A DNA stretch of 64,000 nt from the NCBI GenBank assembly GCA_965230895.1, contig OZ246394.1, positions 1,505,887 to 1,569,886 of the forward strand, in the 5' to 3' direction. Below, one piece after another: positions 10,997-39,246 of the stretch. The stretch's first letter is position 1; each line of letters opens with the position of its first letter. The notes under the pieces are model-generated. The model was not told the DNA's origin, did not search any database, and worked only from the letters and a program-made list of their open reading frames with translations. A program made the position numbers and the translations under genes. This DNA is from an uncultured Gammaproteobacteria bacterium (GTDB lineage Bacteria > Patescibacteriota > Microgenomatia > Levybacterales > UBA12049).

Positions 10997-11069
10997 GCCG
11001 TCGTAGCTCAATGGATAGAGCAGTCCCGTCCTAAGGGAAAGGTTGGAGGTTCGATTCCTCTCGACGGTA
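10997..11069 (+). tRNA. tRNA-Arg (anticodon CCU)
   Basis: Manual cloverleaf fold of GCCGTCGTAGCTCAATGGATAGAGCAGTCCCGTCCTAAGGGAAAGGTTGGAGGTTCGATTCCTCTCGACGGTA. 7-bp acceptor stem with one G-U pair. D-stem GCTC/GAGC with a GG-containing D-loop. Anticodon loop GU-CCU-AA with U33. 5-nt variable loop. T-arm GGAGG/CCTCT (one G-U pair) with loop TTCGATT. Discriminator A. One G27-A43 mismatch in the anticodon stem. Confidence 0.8.
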
Positions 11070-23557: not shown

Positions 23558-25465
23558 ATGGTAAAGAAAAATCATCTGATATTTTTCATTCCAATAGTTT
23601 TAGTTTTATTATTGCTTACTATGGTGGTTACCAAAGTCTATGCAGCGAATACACAACTTTCAATTACAGTGCTTCTTCATGGAATAGGCAAAGGAGGGGA
23701 TAGTTCAAATCCAAATAGTGGAGGGAATACCACACCGAAGAATGCCACCAGAAATATCTCTGTTGGTGTATTTAACGCACAGAATGTTTTAGTATCAAGT
23801 CGGCTTGTCGTAGCAAATTATGATGCAGCAAGCGGAAGTTACAAAGCAACTGTTGATTTTGGGAATCTTTCGACGGGGCCATACAATGTTGCTATCCGTG
23901 CTGATAAATATCTTCAGAAAAATGCAACAGGCATTCAAAATATTACTGCGGGCCAAATAAATACAATTCCTCCCGTAAACCTCATTGCAGGAGATATTAT
24001 TATTGATAATGCTATCAATATCCAGGATTTCAACATGCTGATGAACTGCTACTCGGATTTGCGTCCAGCAAAGGCTTGTACGGCCGCTCAAAGCGCTCTA
24101 GCCGATCTTACAGATGATGGGAAGGTCAATCAACTTGATTACAATTTATTCATTCGTGAGATAGGGAATAGGAGCGGCGAATCGAATCCTACTACAAACC
24201 CTTCTCCTTCTGCTCCTCCGACTGCTTCAAGTGGAGATTTTCCACGGCTCGGAGGCATGCTTATTGGTTCACCACAAAATTATGATGAAGCAGCGTATCA
24301 GCAACAAATAGCAAAGCTTGATATGGCTGTTCTTGGCATGTATCCTGGATGGAATCGTGGAGGTAAAACAATGGCGAAAGCTGTTTCTGAAATTAAAGCA
24401 AAGAACGCCAGTATAAAACTTGCCAATTATACAATCATGACTGAAGTAAATAATACTTCTGATCCGGCAACAGCTGCTTGGCGTACTAAACTTTCTGCGG
24501 AGAAAGGGCCAAATGGGAAAGGGGATTGGTGGGCATACAATAGCTCAGGACAGCATACGGATTGGTCGGGAGGGAGTTACAGTGCATGGGATACAAATGT
24601 CACACTCCAGACAACGGTCGATACTAATGGAGACAAATGGCCGCAATGGAAAGCAAAACATGATTATCAAACGTTATATCAAGGCAATGGGTTTGATTTC
24701 TGGTACAGTGATAATAATTTCTGGAAGCCCCGAACAAATGCAGATTGGAATCGTGATGGCACAAATGACTCTGCAGACTCTGTGGCTGTTCGTAATTGGT
24801 GGAGGGACGGGCAAAAGGCCTATTATACTACTGCAAAATCGATTGCACCAAATACACCAGTGATGGTAAATACAGACAATGATCTTGATGGGACAGTTTT
24901 CCCATCAGATGCTGATGATTTTACGCAATACAAAAATCTTGTCGGTGCAGCTTTCATGGAGCATGCTATGGGTGTGGACTGGTCAACCGAAACATGGGGC
25001 GGTTGGGCAACGACCATGAATTGGTATAGAAAACTCAAATCAAATCTTACCGCACCACAATATGTGATGTTTGATGTATATGTGCCAAATACTTCTGATT
25101 ACCAATATTTGCGTTATGCTTTTGCAACATGTCTTATGGATGACGGCTATTTCTCCGCTTCAACAGATTACAATAAAATTGTCTGGTTTGATGAATTTGA
25201 CTTGGCAGGGACAAAGTCTACAAAATGGCTTGGAAAGGCTGTAGATGGTCCAAGAACCTCAGCATGGCAAAATGGTGTATACCGACGTAATTTCCAAAAT
25301 GGAATTGTTCTGGTAAATCCAAAAGGCAATGGAACCAAGACAGTAACTATTGAATCAGGTTATCGACGATTTCAGGGAAAACAAGCTCCAAGTGTCAACA
25401 ATGGGCAACCTGTAACAACAGTAACATTAAACGATAGGGACGGACTATTCTTAGTTAAGAATTAG
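23558..25465 (+). CDS. Secreted protein with a signal peptide, dockerin/EF-hand-like Ca-binding motif, Pro/Ser linker and a large C-terminal putative glycoside-hydrolase-like domain
   Basis: N-terminal signal (IFFIPIVLVLLLLTMVVTKVYA). DLTDDGKVNQLDYNLF resembles a dockerin-type calcium-binding repeat. NPTTNPSPSAPPTASS linker. Trp/Asp-rich C-terminal domain about 400 aa. Confidence 0.45.
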   Translation: MVKKNHLIFFIPIVLVLLLLTMVVTKVYAANTQLSITVLLHGIGKGGDSSNPNSGGNTTPKNATRNISVGVFNAQNVLVSSRLVVANYDAASGSYKATVDFGNLSTGPYNVAIRADKYLQKNATGIQNITAGQINTIPPVNLIAGDIIIDNAINIQDFNMLMNCYSDLRPAKACTAAQSALADLTDDGKVNQLDYNLFIREIGNRSGESNPTTNPSPSAPPTASSGDFPRLGGMLIGSPQNYDEAAYQQQIAKLDMAVLGMYPGWNRGGKTMAKAVSEIKAKNASIKLANYTIMTEVNNTSDPATAAWRTKLSAEKGPNGKGDWWAYNSSGQHTDWSGGSYSAWDTNVTLQTTVDTNGDKWPQWKAKHDYQTLYQGNGFDFWYSDNNFWKPRTNADWNRDGTNDSADSVAVRNWWRDGQKAYYTTAKSIAPNTPVMVNTDNDLDGTVFPSDADDFTQYKNLVGAAFMEHAMGVDWSTETWGGWATTMNWYRKLKSNLTAPQYVMFDVYVPNTSDYQYLRYAFATCLMDDGYFSASTDYNKIVWFDEFDLAGTKSTKWLGKAVDGPRTSAWQNGVYRRNFQNGIVLVNPKGNGTKTVTIESGYRRFQGKQAPSVNNGQPVTTVTLNDRDGLFLVKN

Positions 25466-25473
25466 GAGATTTA

Positions 25474-25683
25474 TTATTCGCCTTTTTGCTGAATTCCGAG
25501 GAGCCACAATACAGCTTCTTTCTTATATCGACGATCACCACGTGAGTTGATTCTGATTGCAGGTAATTTACCTCGCTTGCCCCAACGCTTAATTGTCAAT
25601 GGAGATACTCGTAGAACTTCAGCAACTTCACGGACAGTGAGTAAATCTGGTAGTGATTCAATAGTGAGTTTCTGATTGGTCAT
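25474..25683 (-). CDS. Excisionase-family (MerR-like) helix-turn-helix DNA-binding protein
   Basis: LLTVREVAEVLRVSPLTIKRWGKRGKLPAIRINSRGDRRYKKEAV is the classic excisionase/HTH_17 fold pattern. 69 aa. Confidence 0.65.
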   Translation of the reverse strand: MTNQKLTIESLPDLLTVREVAEVLRVSPLTIKRWGKRGKLPAIRINSRGDRRYKKEAVLWLLGIQQKGE

Positions 25684-25803
25684 GGATACAGTATGACTAT
25701 ATTGATTAGGATCAATTTAGTCGCTATCTATATATACTGTAACAATCTGTAACATGGTTGTCAATGGGGGAAAAACTGAACTAATTGGATGTATCTACAT
25801 AAT
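25684..25803. promoter_or_regulatory. Putative promoter/operator region of the HTH gene
   Basis: Tandem direct repeat ctgtaaca-at-ctgtaaca and the inverted repeat gtcat...atgac spanning the start codon. AT-rich. Confidence 0.2.
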
Positions 25804-27537
25804 TTAATTCGGCTTAATTTTGTATTCCACTACTGGTACCGCAGTACATTGTCCGCCCATGTCATTAATTGCTGGTATACATTTGCCTGATTTACATGTC
25901 TGTGGACGTGTTGTCTCGCATGGAGCCCCTTCCTCACCAGAAATTGGTGCTGGGTTATTTCCGCATACGCCTGATGATCTCTCCGCTGGTGAGCAATCAT
26001 TTGGATTTATTGGATTTGCCGGAGGTGCTTGGTAACGTGGTGGAACGATAACTGGGTTTGTCGGATTTGTTGGACGAAGACTACCAGGTGCACCTTTTTT
26101 GACACATTTACCATTTACTAAATCGCTATCTTGGGCGCAGCAAACTTTCGCTGTACTTTTAACCGGACAATTAGCTCTTGTAACTGGAACCTGGGTATAG
26201 TTATATCCACATGCAGGGGTGGTTGTGCAGCAGCCGTTTATGACCGGTTTGCCCACATCGCAGCAGACAGTTGGCGTGTTAACAGCTGCGCGCTTTGATG
26301 CGCAAGCAGGTTTGAGCACTGTTACAGGTTTTTGTGGACCTGGTTTCAATGTTGTTCCAGGTTTTACTATTGTTTTAGGTTTGATTGCTCCCGGCTTAAT
26401 GACCGATGGAACCTGGATTCTCGGCAAGACAGGAGCGGGTGGCGGAGGTGCTGGACTGCATGTTTCTCCTGTAATCCCGCCACCGCTTGAAATTGTTCCA
26501 GGTGGGCAAATGCTCGTAACTGTAGTATCATTTGTCTCTTGAGTTATGGCTATACCTGCAACGGCTTGGGGACTATTATCTATCTTTGTCCCTGCGTCCG
26601 CCAGATATACTGATTTTTCTGGGAATACTTGTTTGCCACTTGAATCAACCCATATCTTTATGACAGGGCAGATTTTTGATCCGATGGATCGCTTACAAAA
26701 GTCTTTGCAGGCATCACTATCAGGGTGGACTTTGCAAAGCTCTTCAAGGACATCTTGCTCTTTTTGATCAAGGACTATATTTTCATCGCACTGCTGATTT
26801 TCTCGCGGTTCTCCAAGTACCGGCCCAGAACATAGTCCGCCTTTGAAAAGCTCGCAATACTGACGACTGGTGCAGAGCGGATTCTTCGAGTCTTTACTAC
26901 AGATTGATTGGATATTACTTTTGTCTTTAGCGGTCAGTGGTTTCACCCGAAGTGCTGTGCAAGTAGAATTTATTCGGACATTTGTTGCTTCAGTAATCGG
27001 GAGGTGTTGACCATCAGTATCTGTGATACCTGCCCCCACCACCCATCCTTCGCTGGGGCTATCAGAAGTAAAGAGATATCTTGACTCTTTACTCGTCAGT
27101 GTTTCTCCGGGAGCAAGCATCTTCGTACCTTCTAAAGGCTCAAATTCTGCGATATAGAATTGCTTCAGTGATCCTGCAGCGATACCATAATTTGCTATGG
27201 TAATTGGTTGATCTCCAACATTTTTATAAGTAAATGAGCCTGAAAGCGTATCATTGTAGTACACATTTTGGCCGACAAACTTTTGTCCATTTACTTTTAA
27301 GAGGGTTCCGCCTTCTTGTCCCATACGAGTGCCACAAAGCGTAGGGTCTGCTTCTCCAGTATGAAGACAACCAAAGAGTGGAGGAGCATTAAAACCCTCG
27401 GCAAATTGCATGATGCGTTGTGGCTGAAGAAGTGCAAAGACAGTCAATGCTAGAATTGGCAGCATAATAAACATGAAGAATAGATTCTTTTTGTTATTTT
27501 GCTTTGTTTGAAGTCGTCTTTTTCTTAGTTTTGGCAT
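25804..27537 (-). CDS. Secreted Cys-rich / Pro-rich exoprotein (cassette copy 1)
   Basis: Basic N-terminus plus TM/signal (LFFMFIMLPILALTVFALLQPQ). The conserved ~300-aa N-domain is shared at about 85% identity with 28113..29957. C-terminal half rich in Cys, Pro and Thr. Confidence 0.6.
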   Translation of the reverse strand: MPKLRKRRLQTKQNNKKNLFFMFIMLPILALTVFALLQPQRIMQFAEGFNAPPLFGCLHTGEADPTLCGTRMGQEGGTLLKVNGQKFVGQNVYYNDTLSGSFTYKNVGDQPITIANYGIAAGSLKQFYIAEFEPLEGTKMLAPGETLTSKESRYLFTSDSPSEGWVVGAGITDTDGQHLPITEATNVRINSTCTALRVKPLTAKDKSNIQSICSKDSKNPLCTSRQYCELFKGGLCSGPVLGEPRENQQCDENIVLDQKEQDVLEELCKVHPDSDACKDFCKRSIGSKICPVIKIWVDSSGKQVFPEKSVYLADAGTKIDNSPQAVAGIAITQETNDTTVTSICPPGTISSGGGITGETCSPAPPPPAPVLPRIQVPSVIKPGAIKPKTIVKPGTTLKPGPQKPVTVLKPACASKRAAVNTPTVCCDVGKPVINGCCTTTPACGYNYTQVPVTRANCPVKSTAKVCCAQDSDLVNGKCVKKGAPGSLRPTNPTNPVIVPPRYQAPPANPINPNDCSPAERSSGVCGNNPAPISGEEGAPCETTRPQTCKSGKCIPAINDMGGQCTAVPVVEYKIKPN

Positions 27538-27540
27538 ATA

Positions 27541-28092
27541 TTAATACGTTCTTGGTGTCAAAAAATTGTTTATGGTGTGAATAACACCATTCTTGCTTTT
27601 AATATCATAATTCTCAAGGTACGAGTAATCATTAAGTATCCAATATTCTCCTTTTTTTGTAAATTTTATTTTTTCTCCTTGGACAGTTGTCAGTTCCATC
27701 CCATCTTTTAGATCTGCAAATAGATATTGTCCTTTGACGACATGATATAGCAATGTTTGCCTGAGATCGCCTTCTTGTTCTGGTAATTGTATTGATGCTA
27801 AAAATCCAGGAGAAAGTTTTGCATATGCTTCATCGGTTGGGACAAATACTGTATACGGTCCTTTATCATGGAGAAAAGTGTCATAGCCGACTGATGTTAT
27901 GAGCATTCCAAATTTGCTGGTTGTAGATGAATACTGGATATTGTCTGCTATATCCATTGAAGGTTTCATCTGGATCTCCTCATACTCAATAAAGTTTGGA
28001 TCGGAGGATATCCAGATAAACAGGCTTGGAATAAGTATCAACAAAATGATACCGAGAATATAGAGATATTTTTTACGCAGTTTGAGTGTCAT
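27541..28092 (-). CDS. Fasciclin (FAS1) domain protein, N-terminally anchored
   Basis: YTVFVPTDEAYAKL...LLYHVVKGQYLFADLKDGMELTTVQGEKIKF...NGVIHTINNFLTP matches the FAS1 consensus. Stop is 3 nt upstream of the Cys-rich gene start. Confidence 0.7.
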   Translation of the reverse strand: MTLKLRKKYLYILGIILLILIPSLFIWISSDPNFIEYEEIQMKPSMDIADNIQYSSTTSKFGMLITSVGYDTFLHDKGPYTVFVPTDEAYAKLSPGFLASIQLPEQEGDLRQTLLYHVVKGQYLFADLKDGMELTTVQGEKIKFTKKGEYWILNDYSYLENYDIKSKNGVIHTINNFLTPRTY

Positions 28093-28112
28093 AGCTTAAT
28101 ACATAAAACATA

Positions 28113-29957
28113 CTATCTACAAGCCATCTCTTTCTCGTCATATGTCGTCTGACAGCCTTTATCACGAATACATTGTTGGAATAAGTCTCCGCTTCTGCCA
28201 ACTCGACAGAAGTTATAGCAAGCTTGACTCTCTATAACGACAGGCTCCATACATGCGCCATAAGTTGCCTTATAACCCTTTTGCTTCGCTAAGCAATCAA
28301 AATCACTCTTCTTGGTTAAATCCCCAATGCTACATGTTGGATCTGCTGGAGCAGGGTTTGCCGGTGCTGGGTTTGCCGGAGCAGGATTATTGCCACATAC
28401 ACCTGCTGATCTTTCTGCTGGCGTACAGTCATTTGGATTTGGTGGTGTATCAGCTGGCGCTTTATAGTTTGGCGGATAAATCTTATTTGTGTCTCGAGGA
28501 ATCTGAGATTCTCCAGGCAATGGTTGTTTGCCTGCTGGAACCTGACTCGGTTGGCAATAACCGAACTTCTCTACAGTATCTTTTGCACAACAAACACCTG
28601 ATTTACTCTTGTATTGGCAGTTTGCTCTTGTTGCAGGCGCTGATTTATAGACAAAGCATCCTGGTTGGCAGCAACCATTAATAAGAGGGAAGTCACTTGC
28701 ACAGCATTGGCCACTTTCATTTGCTCTGTGAGATGGGCATGATGGCTTGTAACCGATTGAGCTTCTCGGATCAACTCCTGGCGCTGCTGGCTTTGGTGGG
28801 AATGGGTTTGTCTTTGGTTTTGCAGGTGATGGTGCTTTGCATAATCCACTCGGAGGATTGACGGAAAGATCGACATATCCACTACAACATCCCGCAGTAT
28901 TATCTCCACTTTGCCCATTTGGAATACATGCTTCGGCCTTCACGCCGGCATCGTTATCTGGTGCTCCGTTGGCGGCGGCAATAACCTTTGCGCCAGCAAC
29001 TGCGGGTTCATTGGTACTTGCCATATACTTTGCAGGCTGTGGGAAGACTTGTTTGCCATTTGGATCAAACCACAACATCTCAGCTGGACAGATTTTAGAA
29101 CCAATGGCACGTTTACAGAAATCTTTGCATGCATCACTGTCTGGGTATGGTTTACAAAGTTGCTCTAAAATATCCTGTTCTTTCTGATCCAAAACTATAT
29201 ATTCATCACATTGTTGATTTTCTCGTGCCTCACCAAGAACTGGACCTGAACATTGTCCGCCTTTAAATATTTCGCAGTACTGACGACTTGTACAAAGAAT
29301 GTTTTTCGGATCCTTACTGCAAAGTGCTTGGATGTTGCTCTTGTCTTTTACAGTAAGTGTCTTTACGCGAAGCGCTGTACAAGCAGAACTAACACGGACG
29401 TTTGTAGATTGCGTGATTGGAAGTGGTTGGCCATCAGTATTTGTAATGCCCGGACCGACAACCCATCCATCACTTGGATCACCAGATTTAAATGTATATG
29501 ATGATTCTTTACTTGTAAGTATCTCTCCAGGAGCGAGTGTCTTAGCTCCTTCTAAAGGCTGAAACTCTGCAATATAAAATTGCTTCAGCGATCCTGCGGC
29601 TATGCCATAATTTGCGATATTGATCGGTAGGTCACCAACGTTTTTATAGGTAAATGATCCGGAGAGCGTATCATTATAATAAATATTTTGTCCGACAAAT
29701 TTTTGTCCATTCACTTTTAATAAGCTTGCGCCTTCTTGTCCTAATCGTGTACCACACAGTGATGGGTCAGCTTCTCCTGTATGGAGACATCCAAAGAGTG
29801 GGGGAGCATTAAATCCTTCTGCAAATTGCATAACGCGCTGTGGTTGGAGTAGCGTAAAGATTGTTAGTGCCAAGATTGGTAACATAACAAAAAAGAAAAG
29901 CAAATTTCTTTTTTTATTCTTTGTTTGTCTTATGCTTCTTTTTCTTGTTTTTGCCAT
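28113..29957 (-). CDS. Secreted Cys-rich / Pro-rich exoprotein (cassette copy 2)
   Basis: Paralogue of 25804..27537. N-domain nearly collinear. C-terminus with PANPAPANPAPADP repeats and Cys clusters. Confidence 0.6.
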   Translation of the reverse strand: MAKTRKRSIRQTKNKKRNLLFFFVMLPILALTIFTLLQPQRVMQFAEGFNAPPLFGCLHTGEADPSLCGTRLGQEGASLLKVNGQKFVGQNIYYNDTLSGSFTYKNVGDLPINIANYGIAAGSLKQFYIAEFQPLEGAKTLAPGEILTSKESSYTFKSGDPSDGWVVGPGITNTDGQPLPITQSTNVRVSSACTALRVKTLTVKDKSNIQALCSKDPKNILCTSRQYCEIFKGGQCSGPVLGEARENQQCDEYIVLDQKEQDILEQLCKPYPDSDACKDFCKRAIGSKICPAEMLWFDPNGKQVFPQPAKYMASTNEPAVAGAKVIAAANGAPDNDAGVKAEACIPNGQSGDNTAGCCSGYVDLSVNPPSGLCKAPSPAKPKTNPFPPKPAAPGVDPRSSIGYKPSCPSHRANESGQCCASDFPLINGCCQPGCFVYKSAPATRANCQYKSKSGVCCAKDTVEKFGYCQPSQVPAGKQPLPGESQIPRDTNKIYPPNYKAPADTPPNPNDCTPAERSAGVCGNNPAPANPAPANPAPADPTCSIGDLTKKSDFDCLAKQKGYKATYGACMEPVVIESQACYNFCRVGRSGDLFQQCIRDKGCQTTYDEKEMACR

Positions 29958-29959
29958 AG

Positions 29960-30517
29960 CTATTGCAACATAGATGTTGGTATTAATGCATTTGTCATAA
30001 TATGGATCACGCCATTTTTCGTATCTATGTCGTATGTCTCAAAATATGAATAACCATTGATATTCCAATAGCCATTTGTTTTCTTAAAAACCAATTTATC
30101 ACCTTGGATAGTTGTCAGCTCCATGCCTTCTTTCAGGTCTGCAACATGATACTCTCCTTTAACAACATGAAAAAGTAAAAACTCTCGTAGAAGACCTTCT
30201 TGTCCAGGATCATGCAGTCTTCCAGTTAAATCTGTTGAGAGTTTACCGAATGCCTGATCTGATGGAACAAAGAGTGTGTATGGTCCATTCTGATGTAAAA
30301 ATGTATCAAAGTCTGCAAGTTGTACAAGTGTATTGAATTGGCGAGTCTTTTCGGAATAAGTTAAATTGTCTGCAATGTCTGATGATGGTCTCATTTGAAT
30401 ACCGTCATATTCAATGATTGGAGTATTTGTATAAATCCAGATAAGTGCAATTGGAATAATGATAGCTAATAGAATAGCTACAATATAAACCGGTTTCTTC
30501 TTTACCTTTACTGTCAT
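29960..30517 (-). CDS. Fasciclin (FAS1) domain protein
   Basis: YTLFVPSDQAFGKL...LLFHVVKGEYHVADLKEGMELTTIQGDKLVF...NGVIHIMTNALIP. Ends 2 nt before the next gene. Confidence 0.7.
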   Translation of the reverse strand: MTVKVKKKPVYIVAILLAIIIPIALIWIYTNTPIIEYDGIQMRPSSDIADNLTYSEKTRQFNTLVQLADFDTFLHQNGPYTLFVPSDQAFGKLSTDLTGRLHDPGQEGLLREFLLFHVVKGEYHVADLKEGMELTTIQGDKLVFKKTNGYWNINGYSYFETYDIDTKNGVIHIMTNALIPTSMLQ

Positions 30518-30571
30518 AACTTTATCTTATCTTAAGAAAAATAGAGAAGTCAACGCACGGTATATTCTCTA

Positions 30572-31144
30572 TCATCGATCCTGATTATAATTTGGTGGGA
30601 CAATCTTTGGTTGTTCTGATGAATTATGTATTTCTGGAGGTGCGGGGTTTCCTGGTGGCCTGCAAAAGCCTCCAACCATAAGGAATGCATCTTTTGCACA
30701 GCTTACCTTAAATACATTTTTAAAAGGTGAGTTCTCTCTCGTCAAAACTGGTCTTGGAGTAGGTGTTGGCATTACAATTGGACCTGAAGCGATAATACGT
30801 TTTGTACCTTTTTGAGGGAGGGAGGGTTTCTGAGCTTGTATCGGGTTAATTCTTGCTTGTGCAGGATCAGGAGGCAATGGTGCTCCTCCAGAACATTGTC
30901 CTGCTCGTCCAGCTCCATATGGTATGCAAAATCCTGCTCCTTCGCATTGGTTATTCCCAGCCATGTCACATCCTCGGACCATAAGTTGTGGACGTTGTAC
31001 CTCAGATACATTCGTCTCAGCAGCAAATTGTTTTATTATTTGAGGCTGAAGCATGGTAAAAATTGTTAATGCCAGGATAGGGAACATGATAAAAAAGAAA
31101 AGTAAATTTTCTTTTTGCTTCTTCATCTTTTTCTTTCGTACCAT
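30572..31144 (-). CDS. Truncated/degenerate Cys-rich exoprotein (cassette copy 3)
   Basis: Same basic N-terminus and signal (LLFFFIMFPILALTIFTMLQPQ) and the same C-terminal KIVPPNYN tail motif. It lacks the ~300-aa conserved N-domain. Confidence 0.5.
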   Translation of the reverse strand: MVRKKKMKKQKENLLFFFIMFPILALTIFTMLQPQIIKQFAAETNVSEVQRPQLMVRGCDMAGNNQCEGAGFCIPYGAGRAGQCSGGAPLPPDPAQARINPIQAQKPSLPQKGTKRIIASGPIVMPTPTPRPVLTRENSPFKNVFKVSCAKDAFLMVGGFCRPPGNPAPPEIHNSSEQPKIVPPNYNQDR

Positions 31145-31149
31145 ATTAT

Positions 31150-31752
31150 TTATTTTATTTTACTTGGTGGGATAGCAAAACTTGTTACAGTATGGATAAC
31201 ACCGTTTTTGCTTTCTATATTATAAACTTCTAAATAAGAATAGCCATTAATGACCCAAAAATCTTTTCCTTTATAAAATTTAAGTTTCTCTCCCTGAATA
31301 GTTGTCAGCTCCATTCCATTTTTCAAATCTTCCGCTAAGTACTTTCCTCGCACAACATGGTATCCCAACAATTGTCTCAGAGCATCTTTTTGTTTGGGAG
31401 ATTTCAGGGAATCTGTAAATTCATCTGAAAGATTGTTATATGCAGTATTTGTTGGCGCAAATACAGTAAACGGACCGGGTTCGTGAAGCATTGCACTTGC
31501 ACTAGCAGAATCTAAGAGCGAGGCGAATCTATTTGTCTCGGGAGAATATGAAAGGTTATCCATAATATCTTTTGAAGGCCTCATGTATACGCCATCATAT
31601 TCAATTGTGGAAGGATTGGCATAAATAGTGTATGCGCCAATAGGAATAAAGACTAAGAGGGCGAAAATTACTAAAATAAGTATTTTGACATAAAGTTTCA
31701 TAGGTTTCATCCATCGTAACGTACGTAAAATACTTCTGTCAAATAGATACAA
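31150..31752 (-). CDS. Fasciclin (FAS1) domain protein
   Basis: FTVFAPTNTAYNNL...LLGYHVVRGKYLAEDLKNGMELTTIQGEKLKF...NGVIHTVTSFAIP. Confidence 0.7.
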   Translation of the reverse strand: MYLFDRSILRTLRWMKPMKLYVKILILVIFALLVFIPIGAYTIYANPSTIEYDGVYMRPSKDIMDNLSYSPETNRFASLLDSASASAMLHEPGPFTVFAPTNTAYNNLSDEFTDSLKSPKQKDALRQLLGYHVVRGKYLAEDLKNGMELTTIQGEKLKFYKGKDFWVINGYSYLEVYNIESKNGVIHTVTSFAIPPSKIK

Positions 31753-31824
31753 AAAAAGTATCTAGCATTACATTCAAAGAAATAAATATAAAAACTAGAT
31801 ACTTTTTCGTTTAAGACTGATGTC

Positions 31825-32217
31825 TTATTTCAACTCAACAGTAGCTCCTGCTGCTGTAAGTTTTTCTTTTGCTTCATCAGCTGTTTTTTTGTTAACTTGG
31901 TTCAAAACTTCTTTTGGTGCCGCATCAACTAAGTCCTTCGCTTCTTTAAGACCCAATGCTGGGTTTATTTCTCGAAGTGCTTTAATAACAGCGATCTTTT
32001 GAGCGCCTGCGCTTGCAATGATAACGTCAAATGAAGTCTTTTCTTCTGCAGGTTCTCCAGCATCAGCTGATCCACCAGCTGCAGGTGCAGCGGCGACCAT
32101 AGTTGCGGCAGCAGAAACTCCGAACTTTTCTTCAAGAGCCTTTACTAAATCTGAAAGCTCGAGAACTGACATCTCTTCAATTGCTTGCATTAATTCGTCT
32201 TTACTTAATTTCGCCAT
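31825..32217 (-). CDS. rplL: 50S ribosomal protein L7/L12
   Basis: [34 protein letters not shown]...[11 protein letters not shown]...[10 protein letters not shown]...ATVELK. Confidence 0.9.
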
Positions 32218-32260
32218 CTATAATCACCTCCTTTTCGGTAGGGACTAGTACTTAGAAATC

Positions 32261-32809
32261 CTAAGCGCTAGCTCCTTTCTTGTCTTTAATTGCATTAAGT
32301 GTCATAACAAAATTTTGGATATTCCAACTGAGTGCTCGGTGTAAACCTTGGATAGGTGATTGCATCTGGCCAAGAAGCTTTGCTCGAAGTACTGGCAATG
32401 GTGGGAGAGTTGCGATCTTAATAACTTCTTTGTCTGTTACGATATTGCCTTCGATAAGACCAAATTTAACTTCTGGAAGTTTAAAATCTTTAATAGTCTT
32501 TGAAAGAAGCTTCAATGGTTCAACAACGTCACCATAGATGAAAAGTGCTGCTGTTGGTTTGGTGAATTTATCTTTTTCAGCTTCTGTATCTATCTTATCT
32601 GTAAGTGCTCGGAGCAAAAGTGTATTCTTTGCAGCTACGAATTCTGCATCAACTTTTTTTAAGCCTTTTTTCAAGCCTTCAAGTTGCTGGTGAGTAAGTC
32701 CTTGGTAATTCGCAAAAACGATACCGTTCGCTCGTCCTACCTTTTCAATGAGTTCAGCTGTGATAGCTTCTTTTTTTAATCTGTTTTGTGATGTATTTAC
32801 GTCTGCCAT
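32261..32809 (-). CDS. rplJ: 50S ribosomal protein L10
   Basis: MADVNTSQNRLKKEAITAELIEKV...FVAAKNTLLLRAL. The start is placed at the internal ATG (32809) rather than the ORF-track start 32833. Confidence 0.85.
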   Translation of the reverse strand: MADVNTSQNRLKKEAITAELIEKVGRANGIVFANYQGLTHQQLEGLKKGLKKVDAEFVAAKNTLLLRALTDKIDTEAEKDKFTKPTAALFIYGDVVEPLKLLSKTIKDFKLPEVKFGLIEGNIVTDKEVIKIATLPPLPVLRAKLLGQMQSPIQGLHRALSWNIQNFVMTLNAIKDKKGASA

Positions 32810-32958
32810 AGTAATAATAAAAAAGACACTCACGAGGAGTGCCGAAAATACGAAGTATCTAATTTGGCTCCTCGGTTGGACTTATCTTTGTGCCAACTGT
32901 CTTTGGAATATCTAGCATTATAGCAATCTTGATGGGGAATGTAAAGTGTCGTTCAGAC

Positions 32959-35151
32959 TTATGGAGCTGTTACTCGTAATCCATCGAGGTATACAATACT
33001 TGTTGAACTGTCTGGACCTCTATAAAGTCCTGATTTCATATAGTTACTACTGCTGGACATTGTTGCTCTATTTGTCTTTGGTACTGTTTGTACGCCATTT
33101 TCCCATCCCTCGACAAATCCAGTGCTCGCATTGCTCGAAAACTTTGCATGAAGTACATAATTTGTCCAAACACCTTTGCGGACAGGTCCAAGGCTAAGGT
33201 TCGGGTGTGTGACACCATCTCCTCCAATATCAACGGTTCCGCTTGAGCTTACGTTAATTGCCAATGGGGGAGAACCGCTACCTGAATGAAACTGTAAAAC
33301 AATAAACCACCCTCCAGTAGGATTGGTAAATGAGTTATCAAATTTTACAGAAAATTCGTACCATCGCTCATCTCCCTCAACTACGTCTGCTGTCTCTGGT
33401 GCCGTAACCTCAGCTCGTTCTCCACCAAAATCCGGTTCATCACCAGGTCTGACTTCATATCGTGCAGCTGTTTCGTGGCCGGCTCCATCGTTTACAATCT
33501 TCGCCATATAATCCGCACCGCTATAGCTACTGCAACCGCTATTCATGCCTTTCCATTGACATGTGCTCCATTGACTAAAATTACCTGTGTCATAGTTGCC
33601 TACAAAGACCTCCTTTGTCCCTACAGGAACTTGTCCGACACTAGTTGAGGGTGATGGAGAAATTAATGGTGTTGTCCCAAATATTGTTGGAGTGAGATTA
33701 CTCGGAGCCTGTGAAGTCGTTGGTTGCGCTCCACCAGATGGTTCAGTCGACGGTTGTGGCTCAGTTGATGGTTCAGGGCAAGGGTTGTTCGGATCGGTTG
33801 GCAATGGTACATTTCCACCTCTTAGGATATATTCAATAAGCCAGATAAGGAATCGCATAAATCGTTCGATGAAGCCACCTCCACGATTTCTCTTGTACTT
33901 CTTTTTACCTTTTTTATTTGTTTGGACGGATGAAGAGCTGTCTGAGGCACATGGTGCAACAGTGGAAGGATAAGGATTACTTGCTCCGCCAGAAGGATTA
34001 ACACCACCAGTAACGCCAGGAGTTCCAGCTCCAGGGTTACCGCCGCCAGCACCTGGAGTTGTAGTTGTCCCAATCGGAGCACAAGGAGGTTCACCGACGC
34101 CACCGACACAATAAATTGTTGGTGTTATTAATGATGGGGTATTTGATGGTTGTGTCCCAGTTGTTGGTTGCGTTCCACCTGCAACTGGAGTGTAACTATT
34201 CCATTCTTTCAATACACGTAACTTTTCCCATGGAATACCATTCATTTGATAGTAGTCACTCGTGAATCCTACACTTGGGTATGGATCATTCTTATCCATA
34301 GGGTGCTCGAATTGGAATGCCATTCCTGCACCTCCACAGTCAATAACATAAGCTCCATACTTTTGCAGCGCCTTTGCAACGGTTTTTTCGCCCGCAGACA
34401 TGGAAAGAGAATCAACATTTACAGATGGATCAAGCTGGACACGTGCACCTTCAGGAATTGCTCCGGCTCCACTGTACTTTCCATCGGTCTTTACAGCAGG
34501 GAAGCGAATTTCGTTCACGGCGCAATAACTGGACGAGAATACCAGAGCATGTTCAATATTTCCTTGTTCCATCTCATATGTTCTGACAATTCCAGCTAAA
34601 CGCGAAGTGCCTGCGCCAATTGCAGAATTTTCGGGAGAACCACGTCCATCACCATCAAGTGGCAAAATTCCACCCCAGTTGGTCGTGGCTTTATCATCTT
34701 TATAAATCCAGAATTCATAACTCTTGCGGGCAGAGAGATCAACAATTACCATTTGGCCATCTGAACCTGGTGCTTGCCGAGCATCATCCGGAATTGGTAC
34801 TGGCTCAGTTGAAATTCCACAAGTACCCCAACTTTCTGTACATTTAATATTATGCTTTGGCGTTGATGCATCGGCGAAATAAATCGGAGTACCAAATTCG
34901 TATAAATCAGCGACTTTATCTCCACCAGCTAATGTTTTGACCATTTCAGCACTTTTTGGATCGAGTTGGACGTTGGTCCCAATTGGTTGATTCCATGCAC
35001 TGTCGTCAGCAAATGGGCGACCAGCATTTGTAGTCATATTTGTAGAAGCTTTGCTTCTATTGTCTTGCTGTTGGAGGACGGAGAATATCGTGAGAGGAAT
35101 TGCCAGCGCAACAAGGAGTGTCGGTATCAAAACATTAGGCTTTTTTCCCAT
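32959..35151 (-). CDS. Secreted multi-domain protein with a C-terminal concanavalin-like / polysaccharide-lyase-like domain and a shared internal K-rich/amphipathic module
   Basis: N-terminal anchor LLVALAIPLTIFSVLQQQDNRSKA. C-terminal about 250 aa (WYEFSVKFD...IVLQFHSGSG...LYRG...VYLDG) resembles the Polysacc_lyase / ConA-like fold. The internal segment PSLITPTIYCVGG...KKYKRNRGGGFIERFMRFLIWLIEYILRGG... is shared with the next gene. Confidence 0.55.
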   Translation of the reverse strand: MGKKPNVLIPTLLVALAIPLTIFSVLQQQDNRSKASTNMTTNAGRPFADDSAWNQPIGTNVQLDPKSAEMVKTLAGGDKVADLYEFGTPIYFADASTPKHNIKCTESWGTCGISTEPVPIPDDARQAPGSDGQMVIVDLSARKSYEFWIYKDDKATTNWGGILPLDGDGRGSPENSAIGAGTSRLAGIVRTYEMEQGNIEHALVFSSSYCAVNEIRFPAVKTDGKYSGAGAIPEGARVQLDPSVNVDSLSMSAGEKTVAKALQKYGAYVIDCGGAGMAFQFEHPMDKNDPYPSVGFTSDYYQMNGIPWEKLRVLKEWNSYTPVAGGTQPTTGTQPSNTPSLITPTIYCVGGVGEPPCAPIGTTTTPGAGGGNPGAGTPGVTGGVNPSGGASNPYPSTVAPCASDSSSSVQTNKKGKKKYKRNRGGGFIERFMRFLIWLIEYILRGGNVPLPTDPNNPCPEPSTEPQPSTEPSGGAQPTTSQAPSNLTPTIFGTTPLISPSPSTSVGQVPVGTKEVFVGNYDTGNFSQWSTCQWKGMNSGCSSYSGADYMAKIVNDGAGHETAARYEVRPGDEPDFGGERAEVTAPETADVVEGDERWYEFSVKFDNSFTNPTGGWFIVLQFHSGSGSPPLAINVSSSGTVDIGGDGVTHPNLSLGPVRKGVWTNYVLHAKFSSNASTGFVEGWENGVQTVPKTNRATMSSSSNYMKSGLYRGPDSSTSIVYLDGLRVTAP
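33700..34145. repeat. About 440-nt intragenic segment that is about 85-90% identical to 35740..36150 in the neighbouring gene
   Basis: Direct nucleotide comparison. For example, atttccacctcttaggatatattcaataagccagataaggaatcgcataaatcg matches atttccacctcttagaatatattcaataagccagataaggaaccgcataaatcg. Confidence 0.7.
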
Positions 35152-35217: not shown

Positions 35218-37398
35218 TTATGTTTTCGGAGTCATGCATGTTCCAGTTGTTTGGTCCCAAATCGGTTTTGGATCCACAGGAAGGTCTGCTGGTGGATCGA
35301 CAATGATTTGTATATCTCCCGATGTTGTCAATGATTCTTCACACTGAATAACAGATTCACTATCTGAAGGGTTTCCTACATAAAGATCAACCATTGTGAC
35401 TGCACCACAACCATTTGGTGCGGTCCATGAAACTGCACATTCATCCTCTTTGATGAAATACTTTTGTACACGTGGTACATAAATTTTTTGTCCATAGCTA
35501 TACGCTCCAGTACCGGCAGGGGATGCAAATGTTAATGGGTCAGCATATGTGCCTGTTCCACCAGCTTCTTGATGAATGACTGGATTTGAAATATCTTTGG
35601 AACCCTTTGGATCATTATCATAAGATCCATAAAATGTAACTTTGACATTAGCTTGTGTACCGCCGCTCGCAGCAGGTGATACCGATGGTGTGGTGCCGGA
35701 TGGATCAACAGATGGTTGTGTACTAATTGTCGGTTGTGTCTCTATTGATGGCTCAACTGAAGGTTGAGGGTCAGTTGATGGCTCAGGGCATGGGTTATTT
35801 GGATCAGTTGGGATAGGGACATTTCCACCTCTTAGAATATATTCAATAAGCCAGATAAGGAACCGCATAAATCGCTCTATGAAACCACCTCCACGATTTC
35901 TCTTGTACTTCTTCTTGTGCTTCTTATTATGCATGACACTACTGGTGCTTTCCTGGCAAGGTGCAACATTTGAAGGATAAGGAGTACTTGCACCACCAGA
36001 TGGATTCACTCCACCAGTGACACCTGGAGTTCCAGCGCCTGGAGATCCACCACCTGCACCTGGAGTTGTTGTTGTATCAATTGGAGCACAAGGAGGTTGT
36101 CCTGCTCCACCTACGCAGTAAATGGTTGGGGTAATAAGTGATGGAGCCGAGGACACTCCTGGACTTGCTCCTCCAGTTGCACCAAATTCATACGCACCAA
36201 TATCAATGCCGCTTCCCGCAGGTCGGGCTTTATTCTCTTTATCAAACGCTGGTGCTCCTGCCGCTGTTCCTTTATCAATTGCTGCTGAACCAGCAGTCAG
36301 GTGATAATCTCCATTTCCAACAAATCCTGGATTACTCGTAATATTGTTACTCATTTGAAGGCCTGAGCTATTAGCGCTTCCAATGATGATGTTATTAAAT
36401 ACAGGATTGCTGCCACTTGGAGTTTCAATCACTTTAATCGCTTGTTGCTCATCAATTGTATTGTTGTAAACACGAATATCAGATAATGTTCCTCCGGGTT
36501 CGACCCAAAAGGTGATACCCCCGCCGGCATTGCCATAAATTACATTATTGAAGATATCGATGTTACCAGCTTTTCTTGGATTTTCTGCACCATCATATGA
36601 AGTCTCAGCAGCAATCATAATACCCGCTTTACTGCCTTCAGTTGTTCCATAAGAAATGTTATTGTAGATCTTCACACCACTTGAACCGTCAACATAAATG
36701 TTTGGTCCACGGTTTCCGAATACTACATTGTCATGAATACTTCCATTAACGTCGCCTGCACCATTGTATTTCGCATCAATACCTTCTTCACCATTGCCAT
36801 GGACTTGGCAGTTCTTGATTTCGAAACCTGTTGATCCACCAGTAATACTGAGAGCCTCTCCACCTGCACTTGTTCCCATGGCGTTGGTGCCATGAATATT
36901 ACAACCGTCTACAACAACATTCTTACTTTGCCAGATAATCAAACCGCCTTGCTGGGAACCATCAATTTCAAAGTCTTTTAAGAGCAAACCATCTGCATTA
37001 TTTACGTTTGCACCATAATCACCTGAATCCTTTACCGTAAATCCAATCAGTTTAACGTTTTTACCGCTGATCTTCATCGTGCCATTGGTGATAACTCTTC
37101 CACCGGTTGCCTGGATTGTGACATCACTTGCTGATATGTTAAGTGCTTCATTATATGTGCCAGCTGCCACGTTTACAGTCCCACCTGAACCTGCTGATTG
37201 GATTGCAGAATTGATTGATCCACCTGGTTGTACCTCAACTGCAACTCGTGCTGGAGCTGCTTTGCTACGATTATCCTGTTGTTGTCGCGCAGCAATGATT
37301 GTGATGGGAAGTACGAATAGTGCTAATAGAACAGCAAAAAGAATTTTACGATTTTTCATCCTTACCTTTATGTTATCTACAAAACTCTTGTAATACAA
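35218..37398 (-). CDS. Secreted right-handed beta-helix (pectate-lyase-like, PbH1 repeats) protein with the shared internal module and a distinct C-terminal domain
   Basis: N-terminal anchor LLALFVLPITIIAARQQQDNRSKA. Repeated NNxIxGN / GxxIxxNNT beta-helix rungs (HDNVVFGNRGPNIYV, NNVIYGNAGGGITFW, FNNIIIGSANSSG). Internal KKYKRNRGGGFIERFMRFLIWLIEYILRGG module. C-terminal about 180-aa domain (KVTFYGSYDNDPKG...GTGTYADPLTFAS) that may be a DPBB/3D-like fold. Confidence 0.6.
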   Translation of the reverse strand: MYYKSFVDNIKVRMKNRKILFAVLLALFVLPITIIAARQQQDNRSKAAPARVAVEVQPGGSINSAIQSAGSGGTVNVAAGTYNEALNISASDVTIQATGGRVITNGTMKISGKNVKLIGFTVKDSGDYGANVNNADGLLLKDFEIDGSQQGGLIIWQSKNVVVDGCNIHGTNAMGTSAGGEALSITGGSTGFEIKNCQVHGNGEEGIDAKYNGAGDVNGSIHDNVVFGNRGPNIYVDGSSGVKIYNNISYGTTEGSKAGIMIAAETSYDGAENPRKAGNIDIFNNVIYGNAGGGITFWVEPGGTLSDIRVYNNTIDEQQAIKVIETPSGSNPVFNNIIIGSANSSGLQMSNNITSNPGFVGNGDYHLTAGSAAIDKGTAAGAPAFDKENKARPAGSGIDIGAYEFGATGGASPGVSSAPSLITPTIYCVGGAGQPPCAPIDTTTTPGAGGGSPGAGTPGVTGGVNPSGGASTPYPSNVAPCQESTSSVMHNKKHKKKYKRNRGGGFIERFMRFLIWLIEYILRGGNVPIPTDPNNPCPEPSTDPQPSVEPSIETQPTISTQPSVDPSGTTPSVSPAASGGTQANVKVTFYGSYDNDPKGSKDISNPVIHQEAGGTGTYADPLTFASPAGTGAYSYGQKIYVPRVQKYFIKEDECAVSWTAPNGCGAVTMVDLYVGNPSDSESVIQCEESLTTSGDIQIIVDPPADLPVDPKPIWDQTTGTCMTPKT
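35740..36150. repeat. Second copy of the ~440-nt shared intragenic segment (see 33700..34145)
   Basis: Same as above. Encodes PSLITPTIYCVGG...GGGFIERFMRFLIWLIEYILRGGNVP..PTDPNNPCPEPST. Confidence 0.7.
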
Positions 37399-37961: not shown

Positions 37962-38801
37962 TTAAAGAGAAGCAGTTTCGAGCTTCAAACCAGGGGAAAT
38001 GGTTGATTTTAATGTAACGTTCTTAATGTTTTTAACCTTAACTGCACTGATAGCTGTTTTGATGTTGTCAGCCAATTTCTTATCTCCAAATGAAACTTTA
38101 CCAACAGCCATGTGAAGAATAGGGAACTTAGCTTCTGTTTTGAAATTGATTTGACCGCCAGCAAATTTCTTTGCAGCTTCTTCTGGCTTCGGAGTTACTG
38201 TACCATTCTTTGGATTTGGCATAAGTCCTCGAGGTCCAAGAACACGTGCAACTCGAGCTAGCTTAGGCATAGCATCAGGTGTTGCGATCAAGACATCGAA
38301 ATCAACTTTTCCTGCTTCAATTGCTTTGATAAGTTCATCTACAGCTTTTGGATCTTCAGAAGCATTTGCGATTGCAACACGTGTTTCTTTACCAGTTCCG
38401 TGTGGCAAAACAACATTTCCTGAGATTCCTTTGTCGGTAGTATTGATATGGAGTTCAACTGTCTCATCAAACTTTGCTCGCTGGAGTTTTGGTAAAATTT
38501 CCAAAGCATCATGTAAAGAATACTTCTTATTTTTGTCAACTTCTGAAGAAACTTTTGAATAACTCTTTGAGTGTTTATCTTTTTTCTCAATAGCTTGTTT
38601 GATGTAATCTTTGCCTTTTACAGGTTTTGATTCTTCAACTTCTGTGTCAGATGCTGCTTCATTTGAATCTTCAGCAAGTTCTTTTACACCAGCCTTTGCC
38701 TTTGCTTCTTCAATTGCTTTTAATCGAGCTTTTTCTTTCGCTTGTGCTTTTTGTTCTGATTGGTCTTCTTCGCCAACTGTTTTTACTCTGATTTTTCCCA
38801 T
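37962..38801 (-). CDS. rplA: 50S ribosomal protein L1 with an ~85-aa Lys/Glu-rich N-terminal extension
   Basis: Core from KKYSLHDALEILPKLQRAKFDETVELHINT...GKVDFDV...GPRGLMPNPKNGTV to the end is canonical L1. The N-terminal MGKIRVKTVGEEDQSEQKAQAKEKARLKAIEEAKAKAG... is extra. Confidence 0.85.
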   Translation of the reverse strand: MGKIRVKTVGEEDQSEQKAQAKEKARLKAIEEAKAKAGVKELAEDSNEAASDTEVEESKPVKGKDYIKQAIEKKDKHSKSYSKVSSEVDKNKKYSLHDALEILPKLQRAKFDETVELHINTTDKGISGNVVLPHGTGKETRVAIANASEDPKAVDELIKAIEAGKVDFDVLIATPDAMPKLARVARVLGPRGLMPNPKNGTVTPKPEEAAKKFAGGQINFKTEAKFPILHMAVGKVSFGDKKLADNIKTAISAVKVKNIKNVTLKSTISPGLKLETASL

Positions 38802-38814
38802 ATAATCCTTTCTG

Positions 38815-39237
38815 TTATTCTACTGCGATACCCATACTTCGTGCAGTTCCTGCTACGATTCGAGCACCCATTTCAACATCATCTGTATTCAAATCTTCGA
38901 GCTTTGTTTCAGCAATTTCTCTCGCTTGAGCCATTGTTAATGTTGCATGCTTTTCTCGTCCTGGCTTTTGACCACCTTTATCTTTACCAATTGCTTTCTT
39001 AATCATTTCAGCAACTGGTGGCTTCTTTGTGATGAAACCAAATGTGCGGTCTTCATACACAGTGATAACAACTGGAATGACATTACCTTTAAGTTCAGCG
39101 GTCTTGTCGTTATATGCTTTAACGAACTCCATGATGTTTAAACCATGAGGCCCAAGTGCTGTACCAACAGGTGGCGCTGGTGTTGCAGCTCCTGCTGGAA
39201 GAGCGATTTTGATTAATGTTTTAATTTTCTTTGCCAT
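38815..39237 (-). CDS. rplK: 50S ribosomal protein L11
   Basis: [43 protein letters not shown]... Confidence 0.9.
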
Positions 39238-39246
39238 AATGTGTTA

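Follow-up and report, generated by a model that had tools for sequence, protein, structure and literature searches.

Fasciclin (FAS1) proteins of bacteria have been tied to adherence, symbiosis and interaction with hosts (PMC6032426, PMC7561615). Those most similar to the proteins considered here, Mpb70 and Mpb83 of Mycobacterium, Fdp of Rhodobacter sphaeroides, and Nex18 of Sinorhizobium, consist of one FAS1 domain of ~125 amino acids (aa), and this known single-FAS1 class is extracytoplasmic. A review of FAS1 proteins describes no operon partner for the known bacterial members, the word "operon" occurring 0 times in its text (PMC6032426), and a search of the literature on fasciclin in the candidate phyla radiation (CPR) or Patescibacteria found nothing relevant. 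Here, we describe a predicted operon-level partner for bacterial FAS1 genes, a Cys/Pro-rich gene that occurs three times in a 64-kb stretch of contig OZ246394.1 (assembly GCA_965230895.1, positions 1,505,887 to 1,569,886; hereafter, the window). On the window's minus strand, the ribosomal protein genes rplJ and rplL are followed by three tandem pairs of a FAS1 gene and a Cys/Pro-rich gene and then by a gene for a 69-aa helix-turn-helix (HTH) protein. A sequence-only reading of the window had proposed this array, and all of its open reading frames (ORFs) were found on that strand. We refer to the FAS1 genes of the array as FAS1a, FAS1b and FAS1c, to their Cys/Pro-rich partners as Cys1, Cys2 and Cys3, and to a FAS1 gene that follows a subtilisin gene as FAS1d; L and P numbers denote loci and proteins of relatives.

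Like the known single-FAS1 proteins, the array proteins carry one FAS1 domain (PF02469, 87-92 bits). However, they differ from Mpb70/Mpb83, Fdp and Nex18 in that they appear to be anchored through a hydrophobic segment at the N-terminus, behind which comes a conserved IEY(D/E)G..M.PS.DI.DN linker. Moreover, their genes precede a Cys-rich gene encoding a characteristic N-terminal domain (N-domain) wherever the context of that gene is visible, with one exception, and they occur as tandem paralogous units in a CPR bacterium. On balance, we read the locus as a surface-protein module made of two genes and confined to one lineage, which a Levybacteria-type CPR bacterium carries in three anciently duplicated copies and whose products would form a surface binding assembly. 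Ribosomal protein L11 of the window shares a 90% cluster with a protein from a Candidatus Levybacteria metagenome-assembled genome, and the organism is therefore placed in the Microgenomates group of the Patescibacteria/CPR. For L003 (CAZDOJ010000002.1), the GTDB representative nearest the window, the Gammaproteobacteria label is probably wrong, given the shared L11 cluster. To our knowledge, little is established about how Microgenomates/CPR cells attach to surfaces or partners, and most proteins of their surface are unannotated. An unannotated disulfide-rich family whose gene lies almost always right after a FAS1 gene is a concrete candidate for a surface-binding module.

The paired genes and their conservation

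The array opens with FAS1c, which encodes a single-FAS1 protein with an apparent N-terminal anchor; its ORF spans 31150-31752 (TTG at 31752), and its true start is likely the ATG at 31701, giving 183 aa as in the 183-aa orthologue of L003. It is followed on the same strand by Cys3 (30572-31144; 190 aa, a short family member), FAS1b (29960-30517; 185 aa), Cys2 (28113-29957; 614 aa with 36 Cys), FAS1a (27541-28092; 183 aa), Cys1 (25804-27537; 577 aa with 30 Cys) and the HTH gene (25474-25683), assigned from the ORFs together with Pfam matches for the FAS1 and HTH genes and alignment for the Cys genes. Gaps between the FAS1 and Cys genes were 5, 2 and 3 nt across the three pairs, and no obvious Shine-Dalgarno motif was seen at the gene junctions of the array. 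Membership of the FAS1 proteins in Pfam Fasciclin was clear: FAS1a, FAS1b and FAS1c matched at E = 5e-26, 1.8e-24 and 3e-25, exceeded the 22-bit cut-off with scores of 91.7, 86.7 and 89.3, and covered 120-123 of the 123 profile positions. None contains Cys, and all begin, by eye, with a Lys/Arg-rich N-terminus and then ~20 hydrophobic residues; they thus appear to be extracytoplasmic and N-terminally anchored. FAS1a is 54% identical to FAS1b and 50% identical to FAS1c.

The pairing of the two genes is conserved in relatives. A FAS1 gene lay directly upstream of 10 of the 11 full-length family genes with visible context, which came from eight genomes; these were in the window (twice), L003, L001, L004, L073, L074, L075 (twice) and L077, with spacings from an 11-nt overlap to +19 nt. 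In L001/L002, the gene for P0001 is part of the order rplJ-rplL-FAS1-Cys-HTH, and in L003, which has ~80% DNA identity to the window, a short and a long Cys gene are arranged as rplJ-rplL-FAS1-shortCys-FAS1-longCys-HTH. Elsewhere, a FAS1 gene precedes the gene for P0021 with a 3-nt gap (L004), two FAS1 genes precede that for P0005, with nusG-rplK-rplA next (L073), one FAS1 gene precedes that for P0009 (L074), two FAS1+Cys units encode P0016 and a 605-aa member (L075), and FAS1 overlaps the gene for P0012 by 11 nt, with the same HTH gene 0.6 kb downstream (L077/L078). The exception was P0020 in L076, upstream of which FAS1 is absent. The arrangement holds across relatives whose N-domain identity falls to 35%, and the more alike two FAS1 partners are, the more alike their N-domains tend to be (Pearson r = 0.81 between pairwise identities, 45 pairs). 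Since none of 68 unrelated FAS1 loci, retrieved from JGI metagenomes with a FAS1 profile, had an N-domain gene or a Cys-rich downstream gene, the pairing is a property of the Cys-rich family and not of FAS1 genes generally. The FAS1 + Cys-rich pair is a conserved, lineage-restricted two-gene unit, as had been suspected from the window, and the whole unit duplicates together. In L075, thioredoxin and thioredoxin-reductase genes (8402-9747) follow directly on a FAS1/Cys cassette; this was seen at that one locus only and may bear on the handling of a 40-Cys exoprotein.

The duplications are old. Alignment of the cassette DNAs, which the sequence-only reading had called for, gave ~74% identity between cassettes 1 and 2. 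The proportion of synonymous differences (pS) between paralogues was 0.73-0.80, i.e., saturated, and that of nonsynonymous differences (pN) was 0.10 for the N-domain, 0.44 for the tails and 0.28-0.34 for FAS1. Relative to the L003 orthologues, the ratio of nonsynonymous to synonymous change (dN/dS) was 0.04-0.16, including the short Cys3 and the tail of Cys2. FAS1c was 75% identical to the first FAS1 protein of L003 (dN/dS 0.08) and FAS1b was 91% identical to the second (dN/dS 0.04); FAS1a has no orthologue there. The L003 orthologue of Cys2 was 91% identical in both N-domain and tail (dN/dS 0.04), and that of Cys3, a protein of 210 aa, was 60% identical (dN/dS 0.16). Because synonymous sites are saturated between paralogues and dN/dS is low relative to L003, the array genes are old, functional and constrained; that is, the paralogues are ancient and under purifying selection. 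There is one cassette in L001, two in L003 and three in the window, with cassette 1 missing from L003. Since P0002, encoded beside the same HTH gene on a JGI contig, has a tail that looks Cys1-like by eye, the Cys1 and Cys2 types probably predate these species, and the differences in copy number reflect lineage-specific gain or loss. A contig from a second sample (L084) was 100% identical over 11.1 kb of the array and was not rearranged, but it adds no independent support for the three-cassette array because it comes from the same strain.

One pair of cassettes is internally uneven. The N-domains of cassettes a and b (27541-28092/25804-27537 and 29960-30517/28113-29957) are 79% identical and their FAS1 partners 54%, whereas in the other pairs that involve window copies the FAS1 and N-domain identities agree within about 10 points. 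The mismatch could stem from tighter constraint on the N-domain, from gene conversion long ago, or from cassette 1 being a mosaic.

Candidate transcription signals flank the start of the array. Downstream of rplL (31825-32217; rplJ, 32261-32833, both minus) we read from the sequence a hairpin with arms AAGTATCTAG and CTAGATACTT, followed by a T-run (31756..31804, minus). Its arms are kept in L003 and L001, with one compensatory change from A-T to C-G in L001, and it is a putative terminator, albeit one with a long loop (about 29 nt). Beyond it, a consensus scan found a promoter-like site, TTGACA-18-TACGAT (31713..31742, minus; 10/12 matches), whose -35 element TTGACA does not vary among the window, L003 and L001, and a weaker one, TTGACT-18-TAAGAT (30524..30553, minus; 9/12 matches), lies in the 54-nt gap before FAS1b. 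Since promoter-like and terminator-like sites were no commoner in the region than in shuffled sequences, these assignments rest on conservation and not on counts.

The sequence-only reading had also counted a fourth fasciclin gene, paired with a subtilisin. The gene, FAS1d (57328-57858, minus), encodes a divergent FAS1 protein that was found among precomputed PF02469 matches. It adjoins the gene for a 987-aa subtilisin (57864-60827, minus; NCBIfam and Pfam S8 matches) with a Pro/Gly-rich linker and a Cys-rich C-terminus, at a distance of 5 nt with the TTG start or 20 nt with the ATG chosen by the gene caller. However, the order of the genes is the reverse of that in the cassettes, FAS1 coming second, and FAS1d is only 23-31% identical to the cassette FAS1 proteins; we do not regard it as a fourth copy of the unit. 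A module shared between the subtilisin C-terminus and the tails of Cys1-3 was considered and rejected: BLASTP gave E values of 0.006 or worse without composition correction, and a hidden Markov model (HMM) of the 4-Cys motif scored the subtilisin C-terminus no better than 83 of 500 shuffles. None of the other FAS1 loci retrieved had a subtilisin neighbor. FAS1d after subtilisin recurred just on contigs L079-L083, which carry an identical FAS1d protein and add no independent support because they presumably represent the same organism.

The Cys-rich exoprotein family

Judged from their sequences, the long Cys-rich proteins are an unannotated disulfide-rich exoprotein family. They had no Pfam or NCBIfam match, and an N-domain profile had no match in a metagenome scan. 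Word-indexed protein searches gave just 1-3 relatives, one of them returning P0001 (43% identity) as a single homologue, and an exhaustive profile search was needed to reveal the family: among 1.84 billion cluster representatives it returned 42 family matches, half of which (21) span the whole N-domain and differ in their tails, with total lengths of 452-1105 aa. We defined the family from an alignment of 22 N-domain sequences (A4), in which 12 Cys are invariant (positions 57, 68, 193, 213, 222, 228, 236, 250, 268, 277, 281 and 290) and conserved motifs include CTALR, LCTSRQYCE and DACKDFC. Members combine a hydrophobic anchor, a QPQ..QFA motif and an N-domain of ~260 aa with these 12 Cys. Cys1 and Cys2 have all of these features and match the A4 profile at E about 1e-130, and Cys3 has the anchor and the QPQ..QFA motif only. 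The A4 profile had no significant match among PDB sequences.

All three array proteins have even numbers of Cys (30, 36 and 6 in Cys1, Cys2 and Cys3) and 10-13% proline. Cys2 consists of a signal-anchor, the N-domain (aa ~45-300), a Pro-rich linker, a second module (module 2, aa 401-475) and a Cys-rich C-terminus; Cys1 has the same architecture but a different tail, in which module 2 spans aa 406-485 and a 4-Cys motif stands at the end. The two proteins are 78-82% identical over residues 1-~310, slightly less than the ~85% first estimated, and 43% identical in their tails. Alignment showed that Cys3 is reduced, as had been noted, to its first 46 residues and a distal tail segment. It comprises a signal-anchor, the QPQ..QFA motif, a 4-Cys motif, a Pro-rich stretch and half of module 2, and it has no N-domain: the N-domain HMM matched residues 8-50 only (E = 1e-8), and the module-2 HMM matched at E = 1.5e-4. 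Module 2 is a ~75-aa tail unit with 10 Cys of the form 'CC...INGCC', which we found in Cys1, Cys2, the long protein of L003, P0002, P0003, P0018 and a tail-only protein of L004, with half of it in Cys3 and its L003 orthologue.

The sequence-only reading had suggested modeling the N-domain. An AlphaFold2 (AF2) model from three sequences was unusable (pLDDT 37), and we used the run on the 22 sequences of A4, in which residues 1-314 of Cys2 had a mean pLDDT of 76.6 and values of 80-94 over residues ~75-300. In the model, residues 15-36 form an N-terminal transmembrane helix, residues 74-190 a beta-sandwich and residues 203-268 a helical part rich in Cys; the N-domain is thus predicted to be an Ig-like beta-sandwich with a Cys-rich helical subdomain. 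When compared with fold libraries it showed no enzyme or toxin fold. The sandwich resembled Ig-like, Fn3 and CARDB modules such as Vibrio cholerae RbmA, the CARDB domain PF1109 and the Wzt carbohydrate-binding domain, at just 10-15% identity and with no match at the sequence level; accessory domains of GH2/GH3 enzymes were also among the fold matches. Unlike the RbmA, CARDB and Wzt modules, it has, fused to it, a helical subdomain that contains 10 invariant Cys and matched nothing, and it belongs to a family that has no curated model.

A split-gene version of the family may occur in L004, a distant relative, where two tandem triplets (4358-9797), from which FAS1 is absent, adjoin a normal pair of FAS1 and a 973-aa protein. 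Each triplet encodes a protein of ~295 aa with an N-terminal hydrophobic segment that is pilin-like by eye, an N-domain-only protein (295 or 234 aa) and a Cys-tail-only protein (299 or 361 aa).

Proposed function and its alternatives

The likeliest function of the unit would be that of a co-produced surface adhesion or matrix module. Its products begin with hydrophobic segments and are of an extracellular type in composition. The FAS1 and Cys-rich genes of each unit would be co-transcribed from the promoter past the rplL hairpin and translationally coupled, and a hydrophobic segment at the N-terminus, left uncleaved, would keep each product in the membrane (N-in/C-out), with its bulk outside the cell. 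The N-terminal part of the Cys-rich protein, i.e., its anchor, QPQ..QFA motif, beta-sandwich and disulfide-locked helical subdomain, would work with FAS1 at the membrane surface, and the Pro-rich stalk and the paralogue-specific Cys-rich modules would point outward. Such an assembly may bind external ligands, either the surface of a host or partner cell or an extracellular polysaccharide matrix, and each of the three paralogues would provide an outer tip of its own. No LPXTG-type C-terminus is obvious in the Cys-rich proteins.

Several points weigh against this interpretation. Contact between FAS1 and the Cys-rich protein is something we infer, and the correlation of their identities may simply mirror the shared ancestry of neighboring genes and is by itself no proof of interaction. 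Anchoring as opposed to signal-peptide cleavage was judged by eye. The gene for P0020 lacks an upstream FAS1 gene, the N-domain-only paralogues of L004 follow a different small membrane protein, and Cys3 has kept its FAS1 partner despite having no N-domain, so the N-domain cannot be the sole contact. Furthermore, FAS1 "adhesion" in bacteria has been called context-dependent (PMC6032426).

The main rival is that the unit organizes the cell envelope or extracellular matrix and is not a host adhesin: the sandwich and FAS1 would bind the cell's own wall or exopolysaccharide, acting with the neighboring secreted polysaccharide lyase, beta-helix and dockerin-like proteins and glycosyltransferases. 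We regard this as a real possibility, though distinctly less probable than the surface binding assembly. The fold matches include sandwiches that bind glycans or matrix (the Wzt carbohydrate-binding domain, RbmA and the GH2/GH3 accessory domains), genes for a polysaccharide lyase, a beta-helix protein, a dockerin-like protein and glycosyltransferases are indeed neighbors, and a position next to nusG-rplKAJL genes, as in the window, L001, L003 and L073, would be compatible with strong constitutive expression. However, no carbohydrate-binding residues were identified in the proteins, and the neighborhood varies across relatives (L074, L075, L077).

A more specific form of the surface binding assembly is also conceivable but rather doubtful. 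FAS1 and the N-terminal part of the Cys-rich protein would form an obligate heteromeric surface complex, serving Levybacteria-type cells as a device for attachment to partner cells or substrates, whose specificity would be set by the paralogous units (one to three per genome), which differ in their outer Cys-rich modules. If true, a heteromeric FAS1 complex would represent a class of bacterial adhesin not described before, with FAS1 as its scaffold.

Two further roles are less likely than the matrix or envelope role. That FAS1 is a dedicated membrane helper for export, oxidative folding or retention of its disulfide-rich partner would accord with the tight coupling of the genes, FAS1 always first, with a partner containing 30-36 Cys, 12 of them invariant in the N-domain, and with the L075 cassette that is followed by thioredoxin and thioredoxin-reductase genes. 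We consider it improbable: these neighbors occur at one locus only, and the array FAS1 proteins contain no Cys and are therefore not thiol-disulfide catalysts. We are also unaware of FAS1 domains that act as chaperones or in folding. For its part, the FAS1 review mentions no such role (PMC6032426). That the Cys-rich proteins are secreted effectors or toxins (disulfide-stabilized, bacteriocin- or knottin-like), with FAS1 as carrier or immunity partner, would suit their high Cys content, small C-terminal 4-Cys motifs, lineage restriction and variable tails, but is very improbable given their size (452-1105 aa), long hydrophobic N-terminal anchor and Pro-rich stalks, the lack of a toxin or enzyme fold among the fold matches and of adjacent processing or export genes, and the strong purifying selection on the tail between orthologues (dN/dS 0.04).

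The HTH gene, control of the array and neighboring genes

The sequence-only reading placed an excisionase-family HTH gene with direct-repeat operator-like sites at the end of the array, which hinted at recombinational or phase-variable control. The closest described relative of its product is a transcription factor. Streptomyces BldC, founder of the BldC family, is a 68-residue MerR-like regulator that consists of a winged HTH only; it binds direct repeats head-to-tail, as cooperative multimers, and its homologues sometimes carry integrase- or excisionase-like annotations (PMC5859096). The 69-aa HTH protein likewise is a MerR-type winged HTH without a dimerization or effector domain, roughly 45-50% identical to BldC over 60 residues. 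Its Pfam matches were HTH_17 (residues 14-58) and MerR_1 (residues 16-65), its best NCBIfam model was HTH_BldC (NF033787; E = 6.6e-12, 45.1 bits), and its sole sequence matches in the PDB were the BldC entries 6AMK and 6AMA (E = 1.7e-9 and 1.2e-8). It also passed the TIGR01764 'excise' model (36.4 bits against a cut-off of 28.8), a domain-level model that covers non-excisionase HTH proteins as well, and its 90% cluster has 139 members, for which the IMG name is 'excisionase family DNA binding protein'. Likeness to BldC has limits, which count against this part of our interpretation: the HTH scores 45 bits against the 77-bit cut-off of the curated model and falls outside its membership, and its repeat, TGTTACAG, differs from the AATTxxxx(C) of BldC. 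It is thus predicted to be BldC-like rather than a curated BldC.

The HTH gene has its own promoter, TTGACA-17-TACAGT (25736..25764, minus; consensus scan). A direct repeat, TGTTACAG (25747-25754)-AT-TGTTACAG (25737-25744), fills the spacer and -10 hexamer, and its head-to-tail arrangement with a 10-bp period corresponds to the binding mode of BldC (PMC5859096). This site is identical in L001 and L003 and recognizable in L077, and in the 5' leader of the gene both arms of a palindrome, ATTGAT-N4-ATCAAT (25701..25716, minus), are invariant in four genomes. The operator-like repeat is therefore present, as had been claimed, and conserved, but chance alone yields an 18-mer of this kind fairly often (a match in 39 of 100 shuffles with 3 mismatches allowed); it is credible because its position is conserved in three other genomes and not because of rarity. 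A conserved promoter that carries its own direct repeat suggests autoregulation, and in the mechanism that we propose the likeliest target of the HTH is the head-to-tail TGTTACAG repeat at the promoter of its own gene. Unlike BldC, its sole paired candidate site in the 64-kb window is that promoter; since no second paired TGTTACAG site was found with 3 mismatches allowed, nothing ties the HTH to the cassette promoters. Just past the HTH gene, within the 3' end of a convergent gene (23558-25465), lies a TGTTAC-TGT-TGTTACAG-like sequence (25410-25433, minus), which could be a second operator or a chance occurrence.

The HTH shares a winged-HTH fold class with Xis-type excisionases and recombination directionality factors, but it differs from them in having no partner integrase, attachment sites or mobile-element genes, and in being a syntenic chromosomal gene. 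It occupies the same chromosomal context in L001 and L003, lies beside the same cassette type in L077 and on the P0002 contig, and is 93-97% identical among genomes whose Cys-rich N-domains are ~41-45% identical. The most economical reading makes it an autoregulated, BldC-like housekeeping regulator and a syntenic neighbor of the array. The gene at the array's end is thus where it had been placed, but the "excisionase" is better read as a BldC-like transcription factor, presumably autoregulated, than as a recombination switch acting on the array.

A surface adhesin family switched by recombination or phase variation, with the HTH as control element, is largely refuted and has very little probability left. 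The array does resemble phase- and antigen-variable arrays in its tandem paralogues with conserved N-terminal (5') and divergent distal (3') parts, the HTH exceeds the TIGR01764 cut-off, and copy number varies between related genomes. However, the array lacks the recombinase, flanking inverted repeats, repeat tracts and near-identical substrates of invertible-promoter, slipped-strand and gene-conversion arrays. No integrase, recombinase or transposase domain was found in the 47 scanned of the 49 window ORFs of at least 140 aa, and no cognate integrase in a mobile element bounded by attachment repeats accompanies the HTH. The longest inverted repeat in the array is 28 nt, imperfect (79%) and A/T-rich, and a Tandem Repeats Finder scan gave just a weak A/T-rich array of 9-11-nt units (score at most 38). 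No homopolymer is longer than 7 nt, their frequency is close to background, and long identical repeats are absent from the array. The phase-variable reading is not supported because recombinase, flanking inverted repeats, tracts and identical repeats are all missing. The ~74% identity of the cassettes and their saturated synonymous sites, the unrearranged array in the second sample, and the conservation of the HTH and its promoter in genomes with one, two or three cassettes also speak against it. What is left is the familiar theme of paralogous surface-protein operons, here with an undescribed protein family and a BldC-like neighbor, within a narrow lineage and with a function inferred from sequence.

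The ribosomal genes around the array are themselves interrupted. The groups nusG-rplK-rplA (37962-39963) and rplJ-rplL (31825-32833), both on the minus strand, are separated by three inserted genes, for a cytidylyltransferase-like protein, a beta-helix exoprotein and a polysaccharide-lyase exoprotein, and rplL is followed by the FAS1/Cys array and not by rpoB. In L073, the FAS1/Cys unit instead lies just upstream of nusG.

On the plus strand, the window encodes a giant protein of 2709 aa (2274-10403) with four LamG-like (Laminin_G_3) and four DUF2341 matches and a Peptidase_M23 domain; downstream of it are a 184-aa ORF (10417-10971), a tRNA (10997-11069) and a sortase gene (11547-12311), all on the same strand. 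Three secreted enzymes, the polysaccharide-lyase-domain protein, the beta-helix protein and the subtilisin, share a near-identical internal segment (window genes 32959-35151, 35218-37398 and 57864-60827, all minus), which is kept in L003 (1-1287, 2460-4487 and 4529-6913). It consists of a basic cluster and then GGGFIERFMRFLIWLIEYILRGG (FLDRFFEFIFRLIELIFRIIG in the subtilisin), with Pro/Thr/Gly-rich linkers on either side, and its oddity is that it places a hydrophobic or amphipathic helix midway along an exoprotein.

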